Positions 303-12,311 of a stretch of 64,000 bases of DNA are shown here, piece after piece. Made by a program: the position numbers and the translations under genes. Source of the DNA: a virus. Location: positions 51,570 through 115,569 of the IMG/VR virus record IMGVR_UViG_3300011335_000809; one strand, written 5' to 3'. The notes beneath the pieces were generated by a model. It was not told where the DNA came from and searched no databases. It was given only the letters and a program-made list of their open reading frames with translations. The stretch's first letter is position 1. Every line of letters starts with the position of its first letter.

Positions 303-376
303 TGGTTGGGGATGATGGAATCGAACCACCACAAGCAGATTCAAAGTCTGCCGCACTACCATTATGCAAATCCCCA
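303..376 (-). tRNA. tRNA-Gln(UUG)
   Basis: Cloverleaf, GCAGA-CTTTGAA-TCTGC, GGTTCGATTCC, CCA. Confidence 0.95.
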
Positions 377-382
377 GTTAAA

Positions 383-1225
383 TTACTTTTCATAAAGATT
401 GATAAAATCTTTTCCGTATTTTGATGTCACATAATCAATATACATCTTAATTTTGTGTTTGTCAATCACATTTAATTTAAATGGAAAAGAATTTATTTTT
501 GCTTTATTTTTATTATCTAAATAACCTTTTATTTCAAAATATTCATTTGTTGATTCAAGAATAAAGTCTGGATAAAAATTATAATTGTTATTATTGAACT
601 TATAGGGGAATCCCTCAGTATTTCTTTTAAATTTTATATTATGTTCTAAATTGAAAATTACCCACGCCAATTCCCAACTGCTATTACAATAATAACCTTT
701 ATACCATCCTTGTTTACCTCTTCCGCCTTTTTCACGATAACCTCCTCGTTTACCTTTCAAAAGTCCGTTTACTTTTACATATGTATTTCTACAAATTTGA
801 GAACAATATATCTGTTTTGATTTTTCTGTTTTTAAAAAATTGTAATTACAATGTGGACATAATATAGATTTACGTTTTTTTACTCTAATCTGTTTTTTTG
901 CTAATTCAGATAATCTTTTTTTGCCTTCTATGTCCCATTTTTTGTGACCTCCAAACTTTTGGTTTTCAATAGATGCACATTTTGTAGAACAAAATTTATT
1001 ATTTCTTCTAGAATATTCTAAATCAATATTGCAATATTCACACTTATTTGGATTTAGATTATATTTTTCTACTCTAAATAGTTTTAAACGTGGTGAAATT
1101 GTTTCTCCATTAAACTCTACAGAACATTTATTAGAACAAAAATGATTGTTAGTTCTTTTTATTTCACTTTTATATTTTAAAAACTCAATATTACATTTTT
1201 TACAATTTACTAATATTTTACTCAT
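383..1225 (-). CDS. Zinc-ribbon repeat + PD-(D/E)XK putative homing endonuclease
   Basis: Three CxxC...CSxxC modules; C-terminal SSWE..FYPDF..EIKG motif; ATG at 1225 follows TATTTATTA. Confidence 0.75.
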   Translation of the reverse strand: MSKILVNCKKCNIEFLKYKSEIKRTNNHFCSNKCSVEFNGETISPRLKLFRVEKYNLNPNKCEYCNIDLEYSRRNNKFCSTKCASIENQKFGGHKKWDIEGKKRLSELAKKQIRVKKRKSILCPHCNYNFLKTEKSKQIYCSQICRNTYVKVNGLLKGKRGGYREKGGRGKQGWYKGYYCNSSWELAWVIFNLEHNIKFKRNTEGFPYKFNNNNYNFYPDFILESTNEYFEIKGYLDNKNKAKINSFPFKLNVIDKHKIKMYIDYVTSKYGKDFINLYEK

Positions 1226-1287
1226 ACTAATAAATAGTAATTTTGGAGCGTAAAATGAATTTTGAATCAAAATATTTTGTTTGATTC

Positions 1288-1362
1288 TGGTGCAGTAGGA
1301 GAGAATTGAACTCTCATTTCAAGTTTGGAAGACTCACGTAATAGCCATTATACCACTACTGC
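1288..1362 (-). tRNA. tRNA-Gly(UCC)
   Basis: Cloverleaf, TGAGT-CTTCCAA-ACTTG, CCA. Confidence 0.93.
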
Positions 1363-1447
1363 ATTTTAATAAATTATTAGATGTTCAGTCATCAAATATT
1401 TGATGTGTACTATGAACCACGGACAGGTAATCTAATTTCTCATAGCG

Positions 1448-1537
1448 CGGAGGCGAAGGGTGCTGCCCCCTCAGTGGCTTTTAGACCACGGCAGTTTAGC
1501 AAACTGCTGTAGAAACCTGACTATCTACGTCACCTCC
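1448..1537 (-). tRNA. tRNA-Ser(GCU)
   Basis: GCAGT-TTGCTAA-ACTGC, long variable arm, G discriminator, no encoded CCA. Confidence 0.9.
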
Positions 1538-1625
1538 ATAAAATCTTTTGACAAACTCCGATTTCTTCAAGAGACGATATTATCAGTCTTCGGTTCCATT
1601 GTCAAGTGGAGTTGTATTAAAAGAG

Positions 1626-1709
1626 CGGAAGCAGTAGGACTCGCACCTACGAGGGTTTATGGCCCCAGGCGTTTTCAAGACGCTTTCCTCGACTAACCGG
1701 ACTACTTCC
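1626..1709 (-). tRNA. tRNA-Ser(UGA)
   Basis: AGCGT-CTTGAAA-ACGCC, long variable arm. Confidence 0.9.
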
Positions 1710-1724
1710 ATATAAATTAAAAAT

Positions 1725-1809
1725 TGGTGGGCATAGAGGGACTTGAACCCCCACGGATTTCTCCACGAGCTTCTAAAGCTCGAACGGCTGCCAATTACGT
1801 CATATGCCC
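1725..1809 (-). tRNA. tRNA-Leu(UAG)
   Basis: CGAGC-TTTAGAA-GCTCG, long variable arm, CCA. Confidence 0.95.
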
Positions 1810-1816
1810 AATAAAA

Positions 1817-1892
1817 TGGTCGGCTCGGTGCGACTCGAACGCACAATATCTTGTACCCAAAACAAGCGGAATAGCCATTATCCTACGAACCG
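1817..1892 (-). tRNA. tRNA-Pro(UGG)
   Basis: CTTGT-TTTGGGT-ACAAG, CGG start, CCA. Confidence 0.93.
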
Positions 1893-1902
1893 ATATTAAA
1901 AA

Positions 1903-1978
1903 TGGTAGGTGGTATAGGATTTAAACCTATGACATTTTGCGTGTAAAGCAAATGCTCTATCAACTGAGCTAACCACCC
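1903..1978 (-). tRNA. tRNA-Val(UAC)
   Basis: TTTGC-TTTACAC-GCAAA, CCA. Confidence 0.95.
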
Positions 1979-2010
1979 GTTTAAAAATTGTTATATACTT
2001 TATTTTAATT

Positions 2011-2119
2011 ATCGCCAGATGGGTTCTGTATTTCAGCATAACACCCAGTGACCGATCAAATGTTTTAACTTATGTTGGGGACATCAGATAGAGTTTCAAC
2101 CCCGTTCGTTATATTTCTA
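2011..2119 (-). ncRNA. Structured RNA at head of tRNA array 1 (homolog at 12046-12187)
   Basis: Shares GGTGTTATGCTGAAATACAGAACC and TTGAAACTC.ATCTG with the second copy, with compensatory stem changes. Confidence 0.7.
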
Positions 2120-2146
2120 ATTTACCATACTTCGTCAAATTGTCAA
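2119..2146 (-). promoter_or_regulatory. sigma70-type promoter
   Basis: TTGACA-N16-TAAATT with extended -10 TG. Confidence 0.7.
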
Positions 2147-2155
2147 CCATTAAAA

Positions 2156-2191
2156 TCAAAAACCCGTCATTCTTTTTAAAAGTGACGGGTT
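2156..2191 (-). terminator. Intrinsic terminator of attenuator 1
   Basis: AACCCGTCA..TGACGGGTT hairpin followed by a U tract. Confidence 0.85.
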
Positions 2192-2218
2192 GTATATTTT
2201 TAGCAAACAACCACTCAC

Positions 2219-2272
2219 TCAACTTCCGGATGGGAGTTGACTGGCTTGACTAGGTTGTGAAATTAAATTCAT
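2219..2272 (-). CDS. Leader peptide MNLISQPSQASQLPSGS (putative attenuator of tRNA array 1)
   Basis: 17-codon ORF just upstream of antiterminator/terminator; rich in S/Q/P/L/G, matching downstream tRNAs. Confidence 0.75.
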   Translation of the reverse strand: MNLISQPSQASQLPSGS

Positions 2273-2350
2273 ATTCGTACTAATATATAGTGTTTGAAAT
2301 TATAAATCAACAAAATTATTTAATAATTTTCAAATAAACTTCATTAAATT

Positions 2351-3304
2351 TTAGGATACTTTCTCAAATCCCGTCATATTAATTACGTTCAGGTTTTGAC
2401 CAATAATAGCCTCTACTTGAGTTTTTCTACTGAGTAACCAAGCAAATGATCCAACTTTATACCACGCGCCCAATAGTGCCAATTCACTACCTACCTGCAC
2501 AAATATTGGATTTCCAGAATCACCACCTCTTTGTGTCTCATAATACGACTGTGATGTGCCAAATACTGAAGCTTCTACATCAGCAACTGCATCAATTAAT
2601 CGGGTCATATCTCCAATTGAAACTTTTTTGTCTTGATTGAGGAACAAAACAGGTAACCGTAAAGTTATGAATTGGACCCCCATCACACTATTAATTTCAG
2701 TTTTGATGTATTGTTGCCAGTTGTCTGGTAATACTGAATATATCTTCAGACTACTATCAATTGATTGATCAAGAGTTCCAATTGCAATATCACTTCCATC
2801 AATCTTGTCGATCTTGATGATGTTGTATTTGAAGGTCACATTGTTATCGTTAACAAAAAAGATTTCTGAATTTGGCAAATAAGGAACGTGTGCAGACAAT
2901 AAGACATGTTTATTAGTAATAAGAGTTCCACCTCCAACACCACCGAGGCCATTTATACCAGCTGCAGTGCCTGTCCATTTATAAGATATCACCCAAGAAG
3001 CAGAATTTCGAACCCAAGAAAAAGTAGATTGGATAAACGCACTGAATAAACTACGGTCTTTGCTGGTCGCCATCATTTTGATCAGTGTGGATTTGATATT
3101 AGATACCCAGTTAGTACGTACACTACCACTACTACCACTACTACCACCTATACCGCTACTACCAACTGTTTTACTAGATATCACTTTTGGTAACAATGCA
3201 TTAGATATAAGTTTAGTTACTACAGATGTTGATTGAAGAATTATTGTTTTTAATGAGGAAGTGCCTATTCCGCTACTACCACTTGATCCACTTGTCGATG
3301 CCAT
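2351..3304 (-). CDS. Trypsin-like serine protease with Gly/Ser-rich N-terminus
   Basis: GGGTLI..HVLLSAH, DIAIG, GDSGNP catalytic triad motifs. Confidence 0.8.
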   Translation of the reverse strand: MASTSGSSGSSGIGTSSLKTIILQSTSVVTKLISNALLPKVISSKTVGSSGIGGSSGSSGSVRTNWVSNIKSTLIKMMATSKDRSLFSAFIQSTFSWVRNSASWVISYKWTGTAAGINGLGGVGGGTLITNKHVLLSAHVPYLPNSEIFFVNDNNVTFKYNIIKIDKIDGSDIAIGTLDQSIDSSLKIYSVLPDNWQQYIKTEINSVMGVQFITLRLPVLFLNQDKKVSIGDMTRLIDAVADVEASVFGTSQSYYETQRGGDSGNPIFVQVGSELALLGAWYKVGSFAWLLSRKTQVEAIIGQNLNVINMTGFEKVS

Positions 3305-3339
3305 AAAATAAACCTTTCGTTAATTATAAATAGGTCATA

Positions 3340-3370
3340 AAAATAAAAAACCCGCTTATTTCTAAGCGGG
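3340..3370 (-). terminator. Intrinsic terminator
   Basis: CCCGCTTA..TAAGCGGG + U tract. Confidence 0.8.
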
Positions 3371-3395
3371 ATTATATACACTATTTTAGTTTAGA

Positions 3396-4094
3396 TTAAA
3401 ATGTCAATCTCAAACCGCCGGAATATACTACATCGCCACTAAGTTCACGGGTAGCCCAATTATATTTAGTAGCATTAAAATTGTTGTCATACCATCCAGC
3501 ACTTGCAAATGGAGTCAATACACCAAATGAAGTTTCAAAAGGACGAGTCACTGACAACTTTGCATTTACAGCTGTATAGTCTTCTACCTTACCATATTCA
3601 ACAGCAGGAGTTACAACAAATCCAAATGGAAGTTTTTGAGCACGTTCTGCGCCAATAAACACACCACTTTGTTTCAAGTCTACATCATAAAATCCACGAA
3701 GATATGGTGTTACAAACTTATTTGGCAAAGCCAATTTAACACCAAATTCAGTACTATTTGGAATACCAAAGTTACCTGCTTGGTGACGAGTTACAGTTGT
3801 ATCCAATCGTGCGGAAAATACATCCTTCCATACGTTTACTTCCTTGCCAGCACCCAGCGTCCAATGCGACTGATCTAGATCACCATTAGCCAATAGAGTA
3901 CCACCCAAGTATACATCTGCATACTTCAGACTCTTTACAGCACCTACACCAACAAATGCTGCGCCTTCAGAACGAGATACACCATTGACGATGTATTGGT
4001 TGTTATACCCAGCTTCAACTGAGATGTTTGAGGTGTCGCCTGCAGATACAGCCAAAGCGGCCAATACTGACAATAATACTAATACTTTCTTCAT
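3396..4094 (-). CDS. Outer-membrane beta-barrel protein (TIGR02001/putative porin-like)
   Basis: Signal peptide, Y.NQYI..GVSR motif, alternating beta strands, C-terminal Phe. Confidence 0.7.
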   Translation of the reverse strand: MKKVLVLLSVLAALAVSAGDTSNISVEAGYNNQYIVNGVSRSEGAAFVGVGAVKSLKYADVYLGGTLLANGDLDQSHWTLGAGKEVNVWKDVFSARLDTTVTRHQAGNFGIPNSTEFGVKLALPNKFVTPYLRGFYDVDLKQSGVFIGAERAQKLPFGFVVTPAVEYGKVEDYTAVNAKLSVTRPFETSFGVLTPFASAGWYDNNFNATKYNWATRELSGDVVYSGGLRLTF

Positions 4095-4250
4095 ATTTAA
4101 CTATCCTTTATTTTGTTTATTTATGTTTACTACCCACGTTAAGAACAGCTTAACGTTTATTTTGAAAAGACACTAAAATGTACTTTTCAGAATAATTTTT
4201 TATCAACTAATATATAGTTTTTATAATCTTATTATAACTAATTTATTTAG

Positions 4251-4571
4251 TCAAACAGATTTTACCTTCTTGAGACGCTTGTTCAAAATCTTATCTTTTT
4301 CAGGCAAATAAACGTAAGAAGCCTTTAAACTACGTTTACTTTCACCCAAAATAGACAACGTTTCTTCGTGAACGTCTAATGTTTCTAGTATTGTGCTCTT
4401 TACAAATCTAAAACTATCAGTGCCTACAACATCAATACAGATACCATATGATAGATCTCTATATTGAACATCTGTTGCACCATACTTTGTACACAATACA
4501 TCCTTGATTTTAGCCTTCTTGTCATTACTAAAGACTAAATTCGCCATATCAATTTTACTTAGTTCATTCAT
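4251..4571 (-). CDS. hypothetical protein
   Basis: ORF directly after a consensus promoter. Confidence 0.7.
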   Translation of the reverse strand: MNELSKIDMANLVFSNDKKAKIKDVLCTKYGATDVQYRDLSYGICIDVVGTDSFRFVKSTILETLDVHEETLSILGESKRSLKASYVYLPEKDKILNKRLKKVKSV

Positions 4572-4582
4572 ACTATACTTTT

Positions 4583-4610
4583 ATTATACTTGTTAACGGT
4601 TGATTGTCAA
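4583..4610 (-). promoter_or_regulatory. Consensus sigma70 promoter
   Basis: TTGACA-N16-TATAAT. Confidence 0.85.
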
Positions 4611-4674
4611 TAAAAAATAAAACGATTAATTTTTACATCAATCGTTTTACTCCATTTAAATTTAAATCTATTTT

Positions 4675-5088
4675 TTACTTCTTTTTAAGCTTACCCATAA
4701 GCTTTTTGAGTTTGTCAGGCTGATGTGCTTGTAACCATTTAAAATAATCTTCCTTCTCTCTACGTGAAAGCTCACTGTCTCTATAAAGACCAGCATACTT
4801 CTTTACAATATCTCTAAAAGGATCTCCACTTTCATTTGTCTTCTTAAGTCTATCTATCTTGGATTTCAACATTTTCTTATAATTATCCAAAGAACCATAA
4901 TCTTTTGCTCTACTTGGATCTGGATTTTTTAACAACTTTTCCAAGTCAGCAATATCTTTATTCTTATCATTTTCAGAAAGATGTGCGGTTAATTCATCAC
5001 TTTCAACTTCAGCAGCATTATCAAAATCTTCGTTTAATACTTCTCTTGTCAAACTTTTAATTAACTTCTTTAAATCATTTTTAGTCAT
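4675..5088 (-). CDS. hypothetical protein with MTKxxLKxLI..E N-terminus
   Basis: ORF preceded by TATTTATA motif. Confidence 0.75.
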   Translation of the reverse strand: MTKNDLKKLIKSLTREVLNEDFDNAAEVESDELTAHLSENDKNKDIADLEKLLKNPDPSRAKDYGSLDNYKKMLKSKIDRLKKTNESGDPFRDIVKKYAGLYRDSELSRREKEDYFKWLQAHQPDKLKKLMGKLKKK

Positions 5089-5123
5089 ATGTTATAAATA
5101 TAAATATTATTAATTAGCTACAT

Positions 5124-5294
5124 TTATTTTTCTTTTATACTATCACTCCAACCATTTCTATGTTTAAACATCCAATCCACTAACGCGGTCTCAAATCCTA
5201 TATCAGTCCCTCTTTTTTCACTCTCTATCCATTTGTGTATTTCTATCTCATTTTTTAATTGAAGAAACTTTTGATAGAGATTTGATTCGTTCAT
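5124..5294 (-). CDS. 56-aa DUF4032-like small protein (not in ORF track)
   Basis: MNESNLYQKF..EIEIHKWIESEKRGTDIGFETALVDWMFKHRNGW resembles small HKW.ESEK.G.DIGF proteins I recall from Verrucomicrobiota. Confidence 0.7.
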   Translation of the reverse strand: MNESNLYQKFLQLKNEIEIHKWIESEKRGTDIGFETALVDWMFKHRNGWSDSIKEK

Positions 5295-5313
5295 ACACAA
5301 ATAAATAGTATGA

Positions 5314-5784
5314 TTATTTAAGCGGTATATACAAATCTCCTGTTAATCCTTTTTGAGTTAAATAATTAGCATCGCTAATCGCTAACGGACTCTTAATATA
5401 ACCATATTTTTTACTCAATATTTTACGTAGTTCGTTACCAGCTAATTGTATCAAATCTAATTGTTCTTGTCCACCACTATTTTTAATTTTACCAGCAAGT
5501 CCAAACGGTAACATACGTTCATATTGTTTATACAAATTAATTATATCATTATAATGCGGCAACTCCAAGACAGGCCCTTTTAACTTAGTAGTTATTATTT
5601 GTTTACCAAATCGTTTAGCTACTTCTAAATTATCCGTATGATTTGCTCCCAATGTAGCCACTAACTTGTCACCTGGCTTGGTGCTGTTGATACCCAACCC
5701 AACATTACCATACGCAGGATTAACACCTCTATACACAGTCAATCCACCTGATTCTTCTTTCAATAAATCTTTTAATAATATCAT
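5314..5784 (-). CDS. hypothetical protein, possible ADP-ribosyltransferase-like fold
   Basis: MILLKDLLKE start; LTVYRG..HTD..EVAKRFG pattern. Confidence 0.55.
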   Translation of the reverse strand: MILLKDLLKEESGGLTVYRGVNPAYGNVGLGINSTKPGDKLVATLGANHTDNLEVAKRFGKQIITTKLKGPVLELPHYNDIINLYKQYERMLPFGLAGKIKNSGGQEQLDLIQLAGNELRKILSKKYGYIKSPLAISDANYLTQKGLTGDLYIPLK

Positions 5785-5806
5785 ATAGTAATAAATATAT
5801 AAAAAA

Positions 5807-5897
5807 TGGAGCACGATCAAGGTTACGCTCCTTGCATATGTACTTTCATACAACGATGTTTTGCAGACATCTCAGTTCTCTAGCTCCGTCATCGTGC
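5807..5897 (-). tRNA. tRNA-Cys(GCA) with long variable arm
   Basis: GCACGAT/ATCGTGC acceptor, U73+CCA, GATGT-CTGCAAA-ACATC, variable stem TGTAT-GAAA-GTACA. Confidence 0.85.
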
Positions 5898-5927
5898 TTT
5901 AAAAATGGAACCTATATAGGCATTAAA

Positions 5928-6731
5928 TCATTCAGTATCATTTGTACCAAAAATACGCTTCCAAATTCCTATTCTTTTAGGTTTTACTTCGGATTTTTCT
6001 TCTTTAGGTTGATTATCTTTGTCCAACTTAATGTGAACAGTTCGATTAGACATCCGCATCAATACCTCTGCACCTTTTGGCCACTCTCCCAATTTGTTCT
6101 TAAATTCATATCCATCTTTTTTCAGATTTACTCTCAAATTTTGAGTCAAAAGAGCATTTTCTTTCTTCAACTCTTCTATGATCTTTTCATACTCTACTAT
6201 CTTGTTCTTCAAAAAATCTCGTTCCTTTGTAAGCAATTCAATCTTAGATACAAGCTCATTTTGATCTTTATCAGTCTTTGCAACTTTAAGTTCATCACTC
6301 AAATCTACAATCTCTTTGGTCATACTAACAAGCGTATTGCGCAACGACTTTAAATCAGATTCAAGTGCAGATTTTTCTTGTGTCAAATCTTTGATCTTAA
6401 CATCTTTTTCATCAGATGATACTTTCAACTGTTCAGTAATACTATTTAATTGAGTCATATTAGTATACAATATACTCAACTTATTATCATAACTCTTCAA
6501 TAATACAGATAACTCCGTATTCTTTTGATTTAAATTGGTAATCAATAAACTTTGATTTACAACAATCTCTGTCTGGTTAACAACTTTCTTAGTTAACGCT
6601 TTATTATCTATATTCAATGAACTAAATAATGTATATAATCCAAAAGTTATTAATACAATTACAGCAATTATAACATATAATATCTTTTTATTAGTAACCG
6701 AAAATGTTTGGGGAGCGTTTGTAGATTCCAT
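5928..6731 (-). CDS. Membrane-anchored coiled-coil protein
   Basis: N-terminal TM helix, long heptad region. Confidence 0.75.
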   Translation of the reverse strand: MESTNAPQTFSVTNKKILYVIIAVIVLITFGLYTLFSSLNIDNKALTKKVVNQTEIVVNQSLLITNLNQKNTELSVLLKSYDNKLSILYTNMTQLNSITEQLKVSSDEKDVKIKDLTQEKSALESDLKSLRNTLVSMTKEIVDLSDELKVAKTDKDQNELVSKIELLTKERDFLKNKIVEYEKIIEELKKENALLTQNLRVNLKKDGYEFKNKLGEWPKGAEVLMRMSNRTVHIKLDKDNQPKEEKSEVKPKRIGIWKRIFGTNDTE

Positions 6732-6797
6732 AAATTTATTTTATTATATATATAATCCACTGACATTTAAATATTTTTTTAAAATATAATATCAAAG

Positions 6798-7277
6798 TTA
6801 CCAAGCCCTACATGACCAATATCTCGCTTTAGTACGTGGACCAGGATTATCACAATTGTGTCTTGCTCTAAAATTTTTTCTACGTGCTGGATTATTCTTT
6901 TTTATGGCCATTCTTTTACCTTTAGCTGAAGATCCACCAAATCCAAAATTTACCTTAACCACTTTTCCGTTGGGATTTTTAACGTATACTTTAGATTTCT
7001 TAACATCACCTTGCATTGGTTTACCAAGGATCACTTTACGACCATGATATTCTGCTTCACATAATGGTTGATTATATTCTCGCATGAATTGAACAAATTC
7101 TTTTACATCTCGTTCACTTTCAACATCATATTCTTCTATATTGTCTTCATCTACAAAACCTTCTTTTTTAACACAGTTTGGTACCATTCTTCCGCCTTTT
7201 TCTTTCATACCAATTTGTTTATAAGAGTCCCAACACGCCTCTTCAATCTCATTTAAAAGTTCTTTTAACTTAATCAT
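6798..7277 (-). CDS. Conserved phage hypothetical protein
   Basis: CW..YKQ.G.K.K.G..VPNCV and RRK.FRARH.C..PG..TKARYWSCR.W motifs. Confidence 0.8.
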   Translation of the reverse strand: MIKLKELLNEIEEACWDSYKQIGMKEKGGRMVPNCVKKEGFVDEDNIEEYDVESERDVKEFVQFMREYNQPLCEAEYHGRKVILGKPMQGDVKKSKVYVKNPNGKVVKVNFGFGGSSAKGKRMAIKKNNPARRKNFRARHNCDNPGPRTKARYWSCRAW

Positions 7278-7316
7278 ATCTATAAATATACAAATTAAAA
7301 TAAAACGTTTTAAAAA

Positions 7317-7512
7317 TGGCGATAGAGTTGGGAATCAAACCCAAACCTCAAGTTTTATTACCTTACTGGAGTTTATCGACGTGACAATCATAAGAATAAT
7401 ACATCTAAAATATAGGTTATTCCATAGTCGTCGTTTACATTTACCCAAATAAATTTGGATCATCCCAGCTACAGCTAACCTCTGTAACGTGCTTTCATTA
7501 CACTACTCTATC
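7317..7512 (-). ncRNA. tRNA-like RNA with ~115-nt structured variable-arm insertion
   Basis: Acceptor GATAGAG/CTCTATC+GCCA, D arm, TACAG-AGGTTAG-CTGTA arm, T arm TTGGG-TTTGATT-CCCAA. Confidence 0.7.
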
Positions 7513-7518
7513 ATAAAA

Positions 7519-7595
7519 TGGCGCACCCGGAGGGACTCTAACCCCCAACCTTTCCGGTAGAAACGGATGGCTCTATACAATTGAGCTACGAGTGC
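7519..7595 (-). tRNA. tRNA-Arg(UCU)
   Basis: TCCG-TTTCTAC-CGGA, CCA. Confidence 0.9.
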
Positions 7596-7602
7596 GTTAA
7601 AA

Positions 7603-7665
7603 TGGTTAGTAACTGTTCTCACCAGTGATCACTGAGTAAAAGGAATTGAACCCAACAATTACTAA
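7603..7665 (-). ncRNA. Small CCA-ended hairpin RNA with T-arm
   Basis: 12-bp terminal stem TTAGTAATTGTT/AACAGTTACTAA+CCA enclosing GGGTTCAATTCC and a second hairpin. Confidence 0.55.
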
Positions 7666-7672
7666 CAAAAAA

Positions 7673-7750
7673 TGGTTGTCCCGATTGGATTTGAACCAAC
7701 GACCTTTGTGTTATCAACACACTGCTCTAAACCAACTGAGCTACGGGACA
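7673..7750 (-). tRNA. tRNA-Ile(GAU)
   Basis: TGTG-TTGATAA-CACA, CCA. Confidence 0.93.
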
Positions 7751-7806
7751 ATTGAAAAATAATAATTTTGGCGATATTAAACATTCTCGTTCATATTTAT
7801 AATTGT

Positions 7807-8652
7807 ATGAAGAATATAACACCCACAGATAAAATTGTCAACTTAAAAAGTAGAGATCCAATTGAACTTGAATGTTACGAATGTAAATCAACTTATCAAC
7901 ACGCAAAACATCGTTATTTATGTTATAAACTTAAAGGAAAATTATCAGGATGTTTTTGCACACAAAAGTGTGCTATGACATACAAAAGTAAATTAAAAAA
8001 TATAAATACTAACTGTGAATATTGTAAAAAAGATATTACTAAAAGTTTGAATCAATATAAAAAATCTAAATTGCATTTTTGCTCAACTTCTTGTTCCGCA
8101 ACACATTGGAATAAAATTCACCATCCTATTAGGATAACAAAATCAAAAAGAACGGTAAAACTACCTATATTATTAACTTGTACAAATTGTTTAAATCAAC
8201 ATTATAGAAAATATTATAAATCAAGTAAAAGTGGTACCAATTTTTGTACTAGATCTTGTCAATCAATTTATGCAAATAAGACTTGGAATAAGTCTTCTAG
8301 GTTTGGAATAAATAAAAGTCGTTGTGAAACTATATTAAAAAATATTATTTTAAATGAATTTCCAAATTTACAAATTATTGAAAATGATAGAACTACAATT
8401 AAAGGCGGATTAGAAATAGATTTACACATACCAAGCAAAAATGTTGCAATTGAATTAAATGGTCCCTGTCATTATATTCCTATATTTGGTACAAAAGAAC
8501 TAGAAAAAACACAAAATAAAGATTTATTAAAAATTGAATATTGTCAAAATAATAACATTAAACTTTTCGTAGTTAATGTGATGGGATTAAAAAATCAAAT
8601 ACAAACATTAACTGATGTATTTAATACTACACTAAAATCACATTTAGTGTGA
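7807..8652 (+). CDS. Zinc-ribbon repeat + Vsr/DUF559-like putative homing endonuclease
   Basis: CxxC..FCSxxC repeats; S..E, LEID..IP..NVAIELNG..HY, D..K motif; antisense to the tRNA array. Confidence 0.75.
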   Translation: MKNITPTDKIVNLKSRDPIELECYECKSTYQHAKHRYLCYKLKGKLSGCFCTQKCAMTYKSKLKNINTNCEYCKKDITKSLNQYKKSKLHFCSTSCSATHWNKIHHPIRITKSKRTVKLPILLTCTNCLNQHYRKYYKSSKSGTNFCTRSCQSIYANKTWNKSSRFGINKSRCETILKNIILNEFPNLQIIENDRTTIKGGLEIDLHIPSKNVAIELNGPCHYIPIFGTKELEKTQNKDLLKIEYCQNNNIKLFVVNVMGLKNQIQTLTDVFNTTLKSHLV

Positions 8653-8655
8653 AAG

Positions 8656-8727
8656 CCCTCCATACGAGACTCGCACTCGTTACTACATCGTGACAGGATG
8701 TTATGATAACTCATTCAACAATGGAAG
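8656..8727 (-). tRNA. tRNA-Asp(GUC)
   Basis: ACATC-CTGTCAC-GATGT, G73, no CCA. Confidence 0.85.
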
Positions 8728-8891
8728 AAAAATAAATTGGTGCTGTGCTCTCCACGCCGTCTCTGTGTTTTACCGAATGTACCGGTCGGCAGTCACTTAT
8801 GGGGTCAGTTACCCATTACTAAATTGGCAGTTAGTTTAATGTGTCTTTACAGAAAAGATTTAACTACTAACTGTTCAGTGTTAGCTGAAGA

Positions 8892-8969
8892 TGGTGGATG
8901 CGGTGGGATTTGAACCCACAACCTTTCGGGTAAGAGCCGAATACTCTGATCCAGTTGAGTTACACATCC
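8892..8969 (-). tRNA. tRNA-Lys(CUU)
   Basis: TTCGG-CTCTTAC-CCGAA, CCA. Confidence 0.93.
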
Positions 8970-9008
8970 ATAAAAAATTGTATCTAATATTGTCAACGAA
9001 CTATAATC

Positions 9009-9036
9009 ATCTTACCACACTTTATTCTTCCGTCAA
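9009..9036 (-). promoter_or_regulatory. Internal sigma70-type promoter in tRNA array 2
   Basis: TTGACG-N16-TAAGAT with TG. Confidence 0.6.
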
Positions 9037-9196
9037 CAACTTTCTTAAAAAATATTCTGAACAAATCAACTTTATTTGAGTGGTAGCTGCACCCACTCTC
9101 CGTATTCCCAAATTAACCGTCTGGCCACATTCAAGGGCTTTCACTTGGATAGTTGATACCGGAGTATAGTGTTGTCTTCACCTAGTTCAGAAAAAA

Positions 9197-9314
9197 TGGT
9201 GGGCTACGACTGGACTTTCACCAGTAAACGATACAACCTTTCACTCAGGAACATACCCTCCTTCGGTTATATCAGCGGAGTCATCGCCGTGTCTTATATT
9301 TCCACCACACGCCC
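9197..9314 (-). ncRNA. tRNA-like RNA with multi-branched anticodon domain
   Basis: GGGC../..GCCC+ACCA, D-like arm, T arm ACTGG-TGAAAGT-CCAGT. Confidence 0.6.
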
Positions 9315-9324
9315 ATAAAAAAAT

Positions 9325-9580
9325 CTTAATGTCGCTCACGTACTGCGACTCTCACGGCCTCATAATGCGATGTGCGGGTGGCCGTTGTGCATTCAAACAA
9401 ATCTACCTCGCCTACTTTTTACGATATTGAACTGATTTAGCGACTGTTGTACCTGTTCGGCCCTTCCACCGACTCACGTTTTTTATGGTTGCCCATCGCA
9501 TTGTTATACAACAGTTTTATTTTCAGCGTTTACGTATATCCTTAGTTATCTTGATATGTTTCGTATATACACCAATTAAG
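9325..9580 (-). ncRNA. ~255-nt structured RNA of unknown class
   Basis: Ends pair (CTTAAT/ATTAAG); long-range helix AATGCGATG/CATCGCATT; GC-rich, no ORF. Confidence 0.55.
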
Positions 9581-9585
9581 AAAAA

Positions 9586-9661
9586 TGGTCCCAGTTGTTG
9601 GTTCCGCCCCAACCTCTATTCGTCTTCAGCGAATCGCTTTCACTAGGTTAGCTTAACTGGG
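9586..9661 (-). tRNA. tRNA-Phe(GAA)
   Basis: ATTCG-CTGAAGA-CGAAT, CCA. Confidence 0.9.
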
Positions 9662-9675
9662 ATTATAAATTAAAT

Positions 9676-9753
9676 TGACAAGTCAAAGGAATCGAACCTT
9701 TTCGGCACAGCATCACTGCACCTTTACCACGCCCTGCGCACTAGCACCTGTCA
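9676..9753 (-). ncRNA. tRNA-like RNA without canonical anticodon loop
   Basis: GACAGGT/ACTTGTC stem, T arm AAAGG-TTCGATT-CCTTT, 7-bp arm with 5-nt loop. Confidence 0.55.
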
Positions 9754-9760
9754 AAATCAC

Positions 9761-9908
9761 GATGTATGGTTGGATTCGAACCAACGGCTACTTTTACAAC
9801 CATTAACATATAATTAATGGAATTTTTATTTATTACAACCTAACATAAGATTTTTACGGGCTTACCCCATAGTTAGGTACTCTGCTCTGCCAACTGAGCT
9901 ACATACAA
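9761..9908 (-). ncRNA. tRNA-like RNA with ~90-nt replacement of anticodon/variable arms
   Basis: Canonical TAGCTCAGTTGGCAGAGC D arm and GTTGG-TTCGAAT-CCAAC T arm; internal ACCTAAC/GTTAGGT and CCATTAA/TTAATGG stems. Confidence 0.7.
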
Positions 9909-9917
9909 TGTTTAAAA

Positions 9918-10003
9918 TGGTGGGGTATGTAGGTAATGCGCCTACCGAGCCTTTCAGCGCCAGATTTACAGTCTGGACCATCTCTTTAATGGTATAATAC
10001 CCC
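9918..10003 (-). tRNA. tRNA-Tyr(GUA)
   Basis: CCAGA-CTGTAAA-TCTGG, long variable arm, CCA. Confidence 0.93.
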
Positions 10004-10134
10004 GAAAAATTTAACGTCATATGTTTGTTTCACCATATGACGGTGACTGAGGTTCTTCTTTCACCGTTACGTTCTAGTTATCCTCACCTATGCACAGGTA
10101 GAACGGCATTAGTCACTTCAGAAGACTTATAAAA

Positions 10135-10210
10135 TGGCTCCAAGAGAGGGCAACGATCCCCCAACCTTTCGGGTAACAACCGAATGCTCTACCAATTGAG
10201 CTATCTTGGA
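10135..10210 (-). tRNA. tRNA-Asn(GUU)
   Basis: TTCGG-TTGTTAC-CCGAA, GCCA. Confidence 0.93.
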
Positions 10211-10239
10211 ATTAAAAATTAAAAATGTTTACTGGATTT

Positions 10240-10401
10240 CAACGAACGTTCCATCTACTAATCATAACCTCGTCAGATTATAACATTCAATGTCTATCAG
10301 TGTCAATACATTACTTACTACTTCAACTATTGATTCAGATTCGAACTGAATTACTCCCGCTTATTCGTGCGGTTGTTTTACCAATTAAACTACGTTCGTT
10401 G
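10240..10401 (-). ncRNA. tRNA-like RNA with ~85-nt insertion between T arm and 3' acceptor strand
   Basis: CAACGAACG pairs with distant CGTTCGTTG; D arm, 8-nt anticodon loop, TTCAG-TTCGAAT-CTGAA. Confidence 0.6.
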
Positions 10402-10426
10402 CCTTCACCTAATGTATTTGAAAAAA

Positions 10427-10501
10427 TGGCAAAGTGGGTGGGTAACGCTCCCACATAAAGCAGTTTTGGAGACTGCTGCATTTCTTGTCTGCCACCACCT
10501 T
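10427..10501 (-). tRNA. tRNA-Trp(CCA)
   Basis: GCAGT-CTCCAAA-ACTGC, GCCA. Confidence 0.9.
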
Positions 10502-10560
10502 GTTAAAATGGTATCTCCACCGTTAATATTTCAGTGGCCGTACCTGTTACTCTCTGTAAA

Positions 10561-11631
10561 TTACGAAATTAATGTTGTTGATTCAGATTTTTTCTTTGCT
10601 TCTCTAACAGAGACATAATTGATGGTATTTTCAATTGAAATACCCACTTGTTCCGAAAGACGCAATCCACGATAATATTTTGTAGGAATTCCAACATACT
10701 CACTCATAGCTATTTCTTTACGTGTATCCTTGATAAATTTCATATTTTGAATTGGATACAAATTGTTATATCCAATTGAAGTTAGAATTCCATTACCAAA
10801 TAAGTTCATATGATAATCCGTAATTACATTGTAATATTTAACTTCTTCCATCACTACACTCTTTTTTATCAAGATTATTTCTTCACCTTTTACATTAAAT
10901 GTAATAGTGCCAATCGGTGTATCACTTGTCATCGGATAAGTAAATTTACCAGCCTGTTTATTAAAAATACGATGTTGTACAATTGTCTTTAAATAAGAAC
11001 CATCACTAAATTCCAATAGATTGTATTTGGTTGTTACTTCTGGCTGCTTTATATACAAAGGTTTTGCCGTATCAAACTTCGCTTCGTCAAAATTCCACAC
11101 AATAATATCGTCGATATAATCAATGTCTTCAATTGCTTTGGTTGTACCATCTGACAATGATACCAAAGTGCCTTCTGCTAAACACACAGAAACATATATC
11201 GATATATCTGTACCATATGCTGTTCCATTAACATTTGTTGCAAATGCTCTAATATAGACTAGACCATTTGTTGGGCTTATGTTCTGATTGCTACACGAAA
11301 ATGATCCAATTGAAGCCGTAGGATCCACATAAGCGGAATCTGTTGGAAGTGTTGGGTTTGGAGAATTGCTTGCTACGAATCCTCTAGATAATATCGGTGA
11401 ATTTCCATCAGATACTACTGTTCCTACGGCGCTAAAGTCGTAAAAAGCGCCGCCACTAGCACTATCTGTGGTCACGACTGGCAGTAGCGCCTGTAACGCC
11501 GATTCTTCTTGTTGTGCACCACCTGCAATTTGTTCTTCATATCCTCGCATCATTTTGGAATAATTTTGCATTATTTCGTGTAAGGGTAACTTTTCTTTGT
11601 TCTGTTGATAATAAGTCTGCCAATGTATCAT
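10561..11631 (-). CDS. FN3-like domain + Hint (intein-like) domain protein
   Basis: CLAEGTLVSLSDG..KAIEDI block A; YYNVITDYHMNLFGNGILTS C-terminal block; YIRAFATN..GTAYG FN3-like motif. Confidence 0.8.
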   Translation of the reverse strand: MIHWQTYYQQNKEKLPLHEIMQNYSKMMRGYEEQIAGGAQQEESALQALLPVVTTDSASGGAFYDFSAVGTVVSDGNSPILSRGFVASNSPNPTLPTDSAYVDPTASIGSFSCSNQNISPTNGLVYIRAFATNVNGTAYGTDISIYVSVCLAEGTLVSLSDGTTKAIEDIDYIDDIIVWNFDEAKFDTAKPLYIKQPEVTTKYNLLEFSDGSYLKTIVQHRIFNKQAGKFTYPMTSDTPIGTITFNVKGEEIILIKKSVVMEEVKYYNVITDYHMNLFGNGILTSIGYNNLYPIQNMKFIKDTRKEIAMSEYVGIPTKYYRGLRLSEQVGISIENTINYVSVREAKKKSESTTLIS

Positions 11632-11661
11632 ACATATATATATCCACCAACAATACTAAAA

Positions 11662-11736
11662 TGGTAGCCTATGCCGGTGCTGCCCCGGCTACTCTTGGAT
11701 GAAAGCCAAGTGACTTAGCTGGTTGTCGAATAGGCC
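11662..11736 (-). tRNA. tRNA-Glu(UUC)
   Basis: CTTGG-CTTTCAT-CCAAG, CCA. Confidence 0.92.
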
Positions 11737-11743
11737 ATTAAAT

Positions 11744-11821
11744 TGGTGCTTCAGTGAGGATTCGAACCCCAAACTCAATGTCCGTAGCATTGCGTGATAT
11801 ATCCATTTTCACCACTGAAGC
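11744..11821 (-). tRNA. tRNA-Arg(ACG)
   Basis: CAATG-CTACGGA-CATTG, CCA. Confidence 0.93.
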
Positions 11822-11827
11822 ATAAAT

Positions 11828-11903
11828 TGGGGTGATATACGAGTGCTGCCCTCGTTCCGTGAGTTTCACAAACTCAAATGCTAACTGTTACACCAATATC
11901 ACC
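11828..11903 (-). tRNA. tRNA-His(GUG)
   Basis: TGAGT-TTGTGAA-ACTCA, G-1:C73, CCA. Confidence 0.92.
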
Positions 11904-11915
11904 ATTACTATAAAT

Positions 11916-11991
11916 TGGAGCCGAAGACAGGACTTGAACCTGCAACCTGAACTTTACAAAAGTCCTGCTCTGCCAATTGAGCTACTTCGGC
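11916..11991 (-). tRNA. tRNA-Thr(UGU)
   Basis: GGACT-TTTGTAA-AGTTC, CCA. Confidence 0.95.
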
Positions 11992-12045: not shown

Positions 12046-12187
12046 ATCGCCCTATAGGTTCTGTATTTCAGCATAACACCTACGGACCAATCAATTGATT
12101 TTCCCAGTTCTCACCTTATCATCGGTCTTTCCGACTCACTGGCGGAGGCTCAACAGATGGAGTTTCAAGCCCTTCCTTTATCTTCTA
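12046..12187 (-). ncRNA. Structured RNA at head of tRNA array 2 (homolog of 2011-2119)
   Basis: Same conserved core with an extra GAAA-tetraloop insertion; directly after TTGACA..TAGACT promoter. Confidence 0.7.
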
Positions 12188-12311
12188 TCAGTCTATCATA
12201 ACTTTCGTCATTGTCAACCGACTTTTAAAATTTCTTTTTCATCATCCAATGAACTACTACCTTCGTTCACTGTTTAACTACTTTACCACACCTTCAAAGA
12301 ACGTCAACCAC

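Follow-up and report, generated by a model that had tools for sequence, protein, structure and literature searches.

A conserved pseudoknotted RNA at the head of the tRNA arrays of giant freshwater phages

Introduction

What stands at the head of the tRNA arrays of a giant phage, and what might it do for the genes that follow? To our knowledge, the transcription and maturation of kilobase-long tRNA arrays on the hijacked host polymerase of giant phages are essentially unstudied. The window analyzed here, a 64,000-nucleotide stretch of an IMG/VR virus record, derives from an uncultured freshwater giant phage and carries every tRNA gene of its first 12 kb on the minus strand, in two arrays running from 11991 to 7519 and from 1978 to 303. 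A first-pass annotation, made from the sequence without database searches, had noticed a similar sequence ahead of each array and had proposed a conserved structured RNA. In this analysis, the copies, relatives, fold and surroundings of this element were examined, and both arrays were found to begin with a conserved pseudoknotted RNA.

Results

Two copies of the element were present, one heading each array, as had been proposed, with the correction that both lie on the minus strand (Table 1). Each was preceded by a sigma70-like promoter with the TTGACA hexamer noted previously and was followed by the first tRNA gene of its array. The copies shared the block TTGAAACTC.ATCTG, recorded at first pass, and likewise a 24-mer, GGTGTTATGCTGAAATACAGAACC. 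This 24-mer occurred exactly twice in the window (0 occurrences expected from 100 shuffles) and twice in the whole 115.6-kb virus record, an IMG/VR contig rated 34% complete by CheckV. Copy 2 had been given the limits 12046-12187; the copy exists there, but its 3' boundary had been drawn too short, and a covarying hairpin, P4, also belongs to it.

Table 1. Positions of the two copies, their parts and their flanking features in the window
Feature	Position	Strand	Details
Copy 1, short type	2103-2011	-	93 nt: P1, invariant L1, pseudoknot, mini-hairpin P2, P3; covariance model R1, 108 bits, E 5e-27
Copy 1 promoter	2146-2119	-	-35 TTGACA 2146-2141, 16-nt spacer, extended -10 TGgTAAATT (-10 at 2124-2119)
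Copy 1 P1 hairpin	2103-2077	-	GGGG 2103-2100 with CCCC 2080-2077, 19-nt loop
Copy 1 L1	2099-2088	-	UUGAAACUCUAU; invariant or nearly so in 77 unique sequences
Copy 1 pseudoknot 5' strand	2087-2081	-	CUGAUGU; pairs with 2063-2057
Copy 1 P2 mini-hairpin	2076-2067	-	AAC-AUAA-GUU; AAC/GUU and GCU/AGC in relatives (A4)
Copy 1 pseudoknot 3' strand	2063-2057	-	ACAUUUG; A-rich run 2066-2063 before it, P3 directly after it
Copy 1 P3	2056-2011	-	AUCG.GUCACUGGGU / ACCCAUCUGG.CGAU; apical hairpin 2038-2027
A/U-rich linker, copy 1 to tRNA-Val	2010-1979	-	3' end is AUUUUUAAAC
tRNA-Val, first of array 1	1978-1903	-	32 nt beyond the end of copy 1
Copy 2, long type	12172-12020	-	153 nt; covariance model R1, 94.6 bits, E 2e-23
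Second promoter-like site ahead of copy 2	12307-12280	-	
Copy 2 promoter	12217-12190	-	TTGACA, 16 nt, TAGACT with TG
Copy 2 P1	12172-12169 with 12149-12146	-	
Copy 2 L1	12168-12157	-	
Copy 2 pseudoknot	12156-12150 with 12098-12092	-	
Copy 2 long P2 insert	12142-12104	-	Outer CCAGU/ACUGG becomes UGAGA/UCUCA in relative L109; inner UCGG/CCGA becomes CCGA/UCGG in relative L004
Copy 2 P3	12091-12046	-	
Copy 2 P4	12044-12020	-	Loop UGAG
tRNA-Thr, first of array 2	11991-11916	-	28 nt beyond P4 of copy 2

IMG/VR was searched with an exact 20-mer, with a pattern for the P1 loop and with a pattern for P3, and the same 60-odd stretches were retrieved each time. This agreement indicated that neither half of the element occurs without the other. 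With a looser pattern, at least 120 further metagenome stretches were detected, mostly freshwater with a few labeled marine. After removal of duplicates, IMG/VR and the metagenomes together gave 177 instances, 77 of which were unique, and all 177 came from one clade of ~300-kb freshwater phages. A covariance model was built and genomes were scanned with it, as had been suggested at first pass; exactly two copies, one of the short type and one of the long type, were recovered from each of the near-complete genomes of 296 kb and 304 kb. No match was found among GenBank phages by megablast or blastn. Among 185,579 species genomes, only two 3-kb contigs (L149 and L152) matched, and two other pattern matches were due to chance. 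These contigs were binned into a Phycisphaerales MAG and a Woesearchaeota MAG, and their element and tRNAs were identical to a phage variant; they were therefore taken as phage DNA, probably mis-binned into cellular MAGs, that offers no clue to the host.

Known RNA families were then compared. A scan of the whole window with Rfam 15 at the gathering threshold detected tRNAs only, the GOLLD and ROOL models being unmatched. Permissive scans (E up to 10) of both copies and nine divergent members gave chance matches or tRNAs, none of which overlapped the element, and the families unmatched at this level included EAR, riboswitches, ribozymes, T-box and tRNA-like elements. A tRNA or tRNA-like cloverleaf was considered and rejected, the element being called neither by ARAGORN nor by Rfam RF00005 and its clan. 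A full-text literature search found no description of this element. The main text of a 2023 catalogue of 10,006 candidate viral RNAs is likewise without a tRNA-array leader (PMC10690425). Overall, this leader RNA family is absent from Rfam 15 and from the literature searched.

The fold was examined in alignments of unique sequences, A3 (n = 38) and A4 (n = 77). Members were of a short type of 93 nt or a long type of ~120 to 153 nt. The first helix, P1, has 4 bp (GGGG/CCCC, GGGC/GCCC, GGCU/AGCC or GGUU/AACC) and closes a 19-nt loop; its pair 8-28 of A4 was CG in 37 sequences, GC in 31, UA in 8 and UG in 1 and was unpaired in none of the 77. The first 12 bases of this loop, termed L1 (UUGAAACUCYAU), were essentially invariant in the 77 unique sequences. 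A pseudoknot that was overlooked at first pass is formed between the 3' part of the loop (CUGNUGW) and the linker preceding P3 (W'CAN'UUG). What had been offered there as a possible pseudoknot, GGGG/CCCC in one copy and GGGC/GCCT in the other, is the plain stem of the P1 hairpin. The pseudoknot helix was 100% paired in the 77 sequences. Its N/N' pair (A4 24-88) was G-C in 36, U-A in 31 and A-U in 10 and was broken in none, and its W/W' pair (A4 27-85) was U-A in 46 and A-U in 31.

Between P1 and the 3' strand of the pseudoknot lies P2. In the short type it consists of a mini-hairpin of 3 bp and a tetraloop, in the long type it is a covarying insert of 20 to 40 nt, and in subtype 1b it is missing. 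The inserted stem reported previously in copy 2 was thereby found to be real and to covary across relatives. P2 is followed by an A-rich run, at the usual site for a minor-groove triplex on P1. The third helix, P3, is an interrupted helix of 13 bp that starts at the base right after the pseudoknot; its internal loop (G-W-U-A opposite G-A) is invariant and its apical hairpin is variable. P3 was 94% paired, with three pairs altered on both sides, and pair 111-121 of the apical helix was GC in 67 sequences, CG in 9 and UA in 1. Two changes read as compensatory from the two copies held up in the 77 unique sequences of A4: TGGGT/ACCCA versus TAGGT/ACCTA corresponds to pair 102-128 (GC 55, GU 12, UA 4, AU 3, CG 2), and TCA/TGG versus TCC/GGG corresponds to pair 99-132 (AU 41, CG 30). 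The P4 hairpin was confined to long-type copies and has a UGAG loop and no U-run after it; RNAalifold analysis of 15 sequences gave 10 pairs, 9 of them with compensatory double changes. The last two possible pairs of the pseudoknot compete with the first two pairs of P3. A K-turn or loop-E motif was considered for the P3 internal loop, the sequence of which does not appear to fit either consensus.

Quantification over the 77 sequences indicated that 94.0% of 2002 cells were paired, compared with 34 to 49% when partners were slid, and 9 of the 26 pairs were altered on both sides. The covariation score of 0.257 exceeded those of slid partners (at most 0.060) and of shuffles (0.093), and none of 500 shuffles reached the observed value. 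The nested fold had no excess of stability over shuffled sequence (z = 0.38), a measure that is uninformative for an AU-rich pseudoknot; because the nested fold alone is not unusually stable, the structural case rests on covariation. These results showed that the element is an H-type pseudoknot and a well-supported conserved noncoding RNA. The proposal that both arrays are headed by a conserved structured RNA was thus borne out by covariation in 77 unique sequences and by a strict linkage to tRNA arrays (see below), and the checks suggested along with it, an Rfam search and an analysis of covariation among homologs, gave no match to a family in Rfam 15 and covariation that was present. Since P3 abuts the pseudoknot, a near-continuous stack of P1, pseudoknot and P3 is likely in the model, and such a stack would leave the 12-nt L1 and the P3 internal loop free to contact something.

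Promoters were detected just upstream of most members. A sigma70-type promoter was present in 97 of 108 unique upstream contexts, with a -10 hexamer ending 9 to 25 nt (mostly 12 to 17 nt) before P1, and host polymerase therefore makes the element first. For copy 1, transcription is predicted to start near 2112, ~9 nt before P1. The hexamers were conserved among relatives and the spacer was variable, as expected of a real promoter. Exceptions without an adjacent promoter were mostly members of subtype 1b, which have a small conserved ORF directly upstream instead. In one relative (L019), the order is promoter, tRNA-Val, 54-aa ORF, element and tRNA-Val. This ORF ends in ...YLDILGIE and lies directly 5' of the element (L019:12317-12481; also in relatives L035, L065, L079 and L118); it had no Pfam match and was not found in this virus record, which is 34% complete. 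The subtype 1b exceptions indicated that the extreme 5' position is usual and not obligatory and that the position just before a tRNA is the obligatory one.

Other features were observed upstream of the elements. Ahead of array 1 (window 2153-2330, minus strand) are an outer promoter-like site, a 17-codon ORF, MNLISQPSQASQLPSGS, at ~2272-2222 and a strong terminator hairpin at ~2195-2153. The consensus-like inner promoter comes right after this leader terminator and would bypass it, an arrangement that needs explaining. Ahead of copy 2 (window 12225-12307, minus strand), a hairpin, GUGAAC...GUUCAU, and a 6-codon mini-ORF, MMKKKF (12245-12225), lie between tandem promoter-like sites, and the mini-ORF recurs in relatives as MKVKF or (M/L)KKI. 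Upstream of the element of another relative (L206:216-373), weak Rfam matches to Trp_leader, PyrG_leader and the trpB motif (E of 2 to 5, far below threshold) fall on the presumed leader-peptide/terminator region.

Downstream, a same-strand tRNA array followed the element in 63 of 63 instances with enough flank. The first tRNA lay a median of 44 nt beyond the AGAACC block, with which the P3 internal loop ends, in these 63 instances, and most distances were 31 to 49 nt in the short type and 60 to 66 nt in the long type. The sequence AUUUUUAAAY ends an A/U-rich single-stranded linker just before the 5' end of the tRNA. The first tRNA was Val, Thr, Pro, His or Arg, and the element is thus independent of the identity of that tRNA. 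Inside the arrays, sigma70 promoters of consensus or near-consensus sequence were also detected, at 10306-10277, 7841-7813, 4610-4583 and 465-437 of the minus strand, each ~60 nt before a tRNA or an ORF and none with a copy of the element. The internal promoters indicated that the arrays are several transcription units and, as they drive tRNAs in the absence of an element, that the element is not needed for every such unit.

A simple terminator scan detected few canonical intrinsic terminators inside the arrays. The tRNA 3' trailers were examined in window 303-11991 and in the arrays of ~60 loci. A run of at least four U residues within 10 nt of the CCA end was present in 245 of 459 unique trailers (53%), compared with 6.5% of background 10-mers from the same arrays. 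With a U-run right after its CCA end, each tRNA resembles a weak terminator or pause site; these runs are either terminator or pause mimics or processing signals.

The arrays also held irregular genes. The segment at window 11831-11902 (minus strand) was called as a tRNA by Rfam (37 bits) and not by ARAGORN, and an HNH-endonuclease ORF is inserted between tRNA-Gly and tRNA-Gln at window 383-1270 (minus strand). In one relative (L009:3531 onward), a degenerate tRNA-like sequence that was not called by ARAGORN stands in place of the first tRNA-Val.

Evidence of transcription was sought in metatranscriptomes. A 2.4-kb test stretch was partly present in six freshwater runs, and in four runs from four studies, contigs ran unbroken through the leader ORF, terminator, promoter, element and tRNA-Val. 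As assembled contigs, which carry no RNA ends, strand or levels and may include DNA carry-over, these data fit transcription of the element, including read-through from the upstream terminator. In run X16, the contig with the element and tRNA-Val was the deepest of the region, contig depth being a weak measure. A neighboring 317-aa gene had near-absent contig cover in three runs, which was suggestive of RNA over DNA carry-over and was not counted as evidence.

Discussion

The family is best described as one placed among the phage leader RNAs of long operons or the structured RNAs that accompany phage tRNA islands. The closest parallel in organization is put. In phage HK022, putL and putR mediate RNA-only processive antitermination and anti-pausing; put RNA has ~70 nt and is V-shaped, being built of two stem-loops, of which stem I includes a short triplex. 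It binds RNA polymerase at the beta-prime zinc-binding domain and, with no need for protein factors, counteracts both pausing and termination; putR lies ~270 nt from its promoter (PMC9378689). Like the element, put is encoded in cis by a phage, in two diverged copies per genome that follow the promoters of long operons, one of them possibly at a greater distance. Both have two helical domains and a strand placed for a minor-groove triplex, which is A-rich in the element, and neither needs a dedicated protein gene nearby. Two related copies behind long-operon promoters were indeed found in the 296- and 304-kb genomes, with a promoter in ~90% of contexts. The element does not have the ~70-nt, two-stem-loop V shape, and its two-domain layout and possible A-rich triplex strand are analogous only. 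Compared by description, put is a ~70-nt RNA of two stem-loops and no pseudoknot, whereas the element has 93 to 153 nt, an H-type pseudoknot and a long interrupted helix. Their cargoes also differ, put heading protein-coding early operons of lambdoid phage and the element heading the tRNA arrays of giant freshwater phages.

Other leaders share part of this arrangement. Lambda nut and the rrn boxB-boxA-boxC leaders also lie just behind the promoters of long operons, and rrn leaders protect untranslated, structured RNA genes from Rho and pausing. These leaders consist of a short linear boxA and a simple hairpin read by NusB/S10 (and N), whereas the element is a folded pseudoknot. The motif UUGAAACU may resemble the 3' half of a boxA of the Gram-positive type, a resemblance that was not used as evidence. 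The eps-associated RNA (EAR) of Bacillales, which promotes read-through of distal terminators, is like the element a structured RNA (~120 nt) inside an operon, and its mid-operon placement resembles that of subtype 1b; however, the element gave no match to the Rfam EAR model at E up to 10, and the host group and operon type differ. Other H-type pseudoknots of 5' leaders, such as that of T4 gene 32, are likewise compact, open a phage transcript and precede an unstructured A/U-rich stretch. In T4, the pseudoknot nucleates the binding of an autoregulatory protein on an mRNA, whereas the downstream cargo of the element is tRNAs. GOLLD and ROOL are structured phage RNAs of unknown function that are characteristically found beside tRNA islands (PMC12286853). 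They are RNAs of 600 to 800 nt or more that form multimeric cages and are not consistently first in the array, whereas the element is 5- to 8-fold smaller.

The reading that we favor, tentatively and short of calling it probable, is that the element is a put-like, cis-acting anti-pausing or antitermination leader, one of the roles offered at first pass beside a processing signal and a ribozyme. It is drawn from an analogy of placement and not from membership, because no EAR or other Rfam match was found and put is known here by description. The element would act in cis during transcription of the operon, while its invariant exposed loops contact a macromolecule; its RNA might recruit a host elongation factor or itself attach to the polymerase from which it has just emerged, and that polymerase would then withstand pause and termination signals. 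In this way host RNA polymerase could cross kilobases of untranslated, structured tRNA genes, about half of which have a terminator-like U-run. In favor of antitermination, the organization (two diverged copies, long-operon promoters, two helical domains and a likely triplex strand) mirrors that of put, the cargo is kilobases of untranslated, hairpin-rich RNA in which 53% of tRNA trailers carry a U-run, and the element of L019, which has no adjacent promoter, still lies directly before a tRNA within its operon, as may be compared with putR. Against it, the arrays have few canonical terminators and internal promoters that do without the element, the U-runs lie 4 nt past the acceptor stem and are equally possible processing signals, the nested fold is no stabler than shuffles (z = 0.38), and the constant short spacing to the first tRNA suits processing at least as well.

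This constrained spacing (31 to 49 nt from AGAACC in the short type and 60 to 66 nt in the long type) would be expected of a processing or stability module, a somewhat unlikely explanation in which the pseudoknot either positions the first pre-tRNA correctly for RNase P or RNase E or shields the operon transcript from 5'-end-dependent decay (RNase E, RNase J) for as long as its tRNAs have yet to be excised. The A/U-rich single-stranded linker ending in AUUUUUAAAY just before the tRNA, the retention of the element beside the tRNA even when the promoter is not adjacent and its usual location within ~10 nt of the predicted 5' end are consistent with such a module. However, end protection would not require 12 + 6 invariant unpaired bases, the mid-operon position of subtype 1b is away from the 5' end, and other tRNAs of the same arrays are processed without an element. 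Invariant exposed loops do resemble a binding surface, and it is conceivable, if rather unlikely, that an RNase P cut at the first tRNA frees a stable, knotted RNA with a function in trans, such as that of a protein sponge, a decoy or a counter-defense RNA. Such a released RNA would have its own promoter and a defined 3' end at the tRNA, and the contig of element and tRNA-Val was the deepest of its region in run X16, by a weak measure. It would be comparable to RNAs without an assigned role inside the T4 tRNA cluster. From GOLLD and ROOL it is evident that structured RNAs close to tRNA islands are retained by phages (PMC12286853). The RNA contigs, on the other hand, are continuous from the element into the tRNA, and sites complementary to L1 were not enriched in the phage genome over a reversed-pattern control. 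L1 was rejected as an sRNA seed on these counts (the phage record had 57 complementary and 38 reversed-pattern sites, and the elements themselves accounted for two of three exact matches). No partner protein was named among the neighboring and larger ORFs searched: ten neighboring ORFs had no Pfam match, and a PHROGs search of ten of the larger ORFs of the window named only HNH, helicase, polymerase, endonuclease VII and structural proteins.

Invariant bases at the junctions of a pseudoknot core are a typical aptamer feature, and the competition between the end pairs of the pseudoknot and the first P3 pairs could make a switch. A ligand- or tRNA-sensing, riboswitch-like RNA that tunes the output of the tRNA operon together with the putative upstream leader-peptide attenuators is nevertheless improbable, as no expression platform was seen (neither P3 nor P4 is followed by a terminator, and there is no start codon that could be sequestered), the same sequences stand ahead of arrays with differing tRNA sets, and no Rfam riboswitch matched at E up to 10. 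We regard as highly improbable a new class of self-cleaving ribozyme by which the 5' leader would be trimmed, although the element is a small pseudoknotted phage RNA with strictly conserved unpaired bases and pistol, hatchet and twister-type ribozymes are common in a phage context. No Rfam ribozyme family (hammerhead, twister, twister-sister, pistol, hatchet, HDV-like) matched at E up to 10, the loop CUGAUGU is not kept as a hammerhead core (CUGUUGA and CUGGUGU occur in relatives), the element is spanned from end to end by unbroken RNA contigs in four runs, and RNase P already makes the 5' end of the tRNA. Scarcely credible is a DNA-level signal (a second promoter or a protein operator) or a small ORF in place of an RNA. 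A promoter-like CTGAAA-17-GATAAT was flagged inside the element and an AUG lies within GUUAUGCUG, but the -35-like part falls in the variable apical hairpin, many members have GATGAC, GATAAC or GGTAAA in place of GATAAT, UAUCCU variants lack the AUG, and substitutions are pairwise-compensatory and not codon-like. Both the internal promoter and the small ORF were ruled out by the family alignment A4.

Returning to antitermination, a more specific and doubtful extension is that the element represents a new fold of RNA-only or host-factor-recruiting processive antitermination element dedicated to tRNA operons, acting with the putative upstream leader-peptide attenuators in a two-layer control of tRNA supply. 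The element offers a tractable entry point to the tRNA arrays of giant phages, as it is small, has sharply delimited targets for mutation (the pseudoknot pair with its three states and the two invariant loops) and is strictly tied to the first tRNA of the array. If it modifies polymerase, put would be the only earlier type of RNA-only antiterminator, and tRNA operons would gain their first. As a released RNA, it would instead be a further companion of tRNA islands beside GOLLD and ROOL, at a size suited to structure determination. Either way, it adds a new family for Rfam-type catalogues and a marker for a clade of freshwater giant phages.
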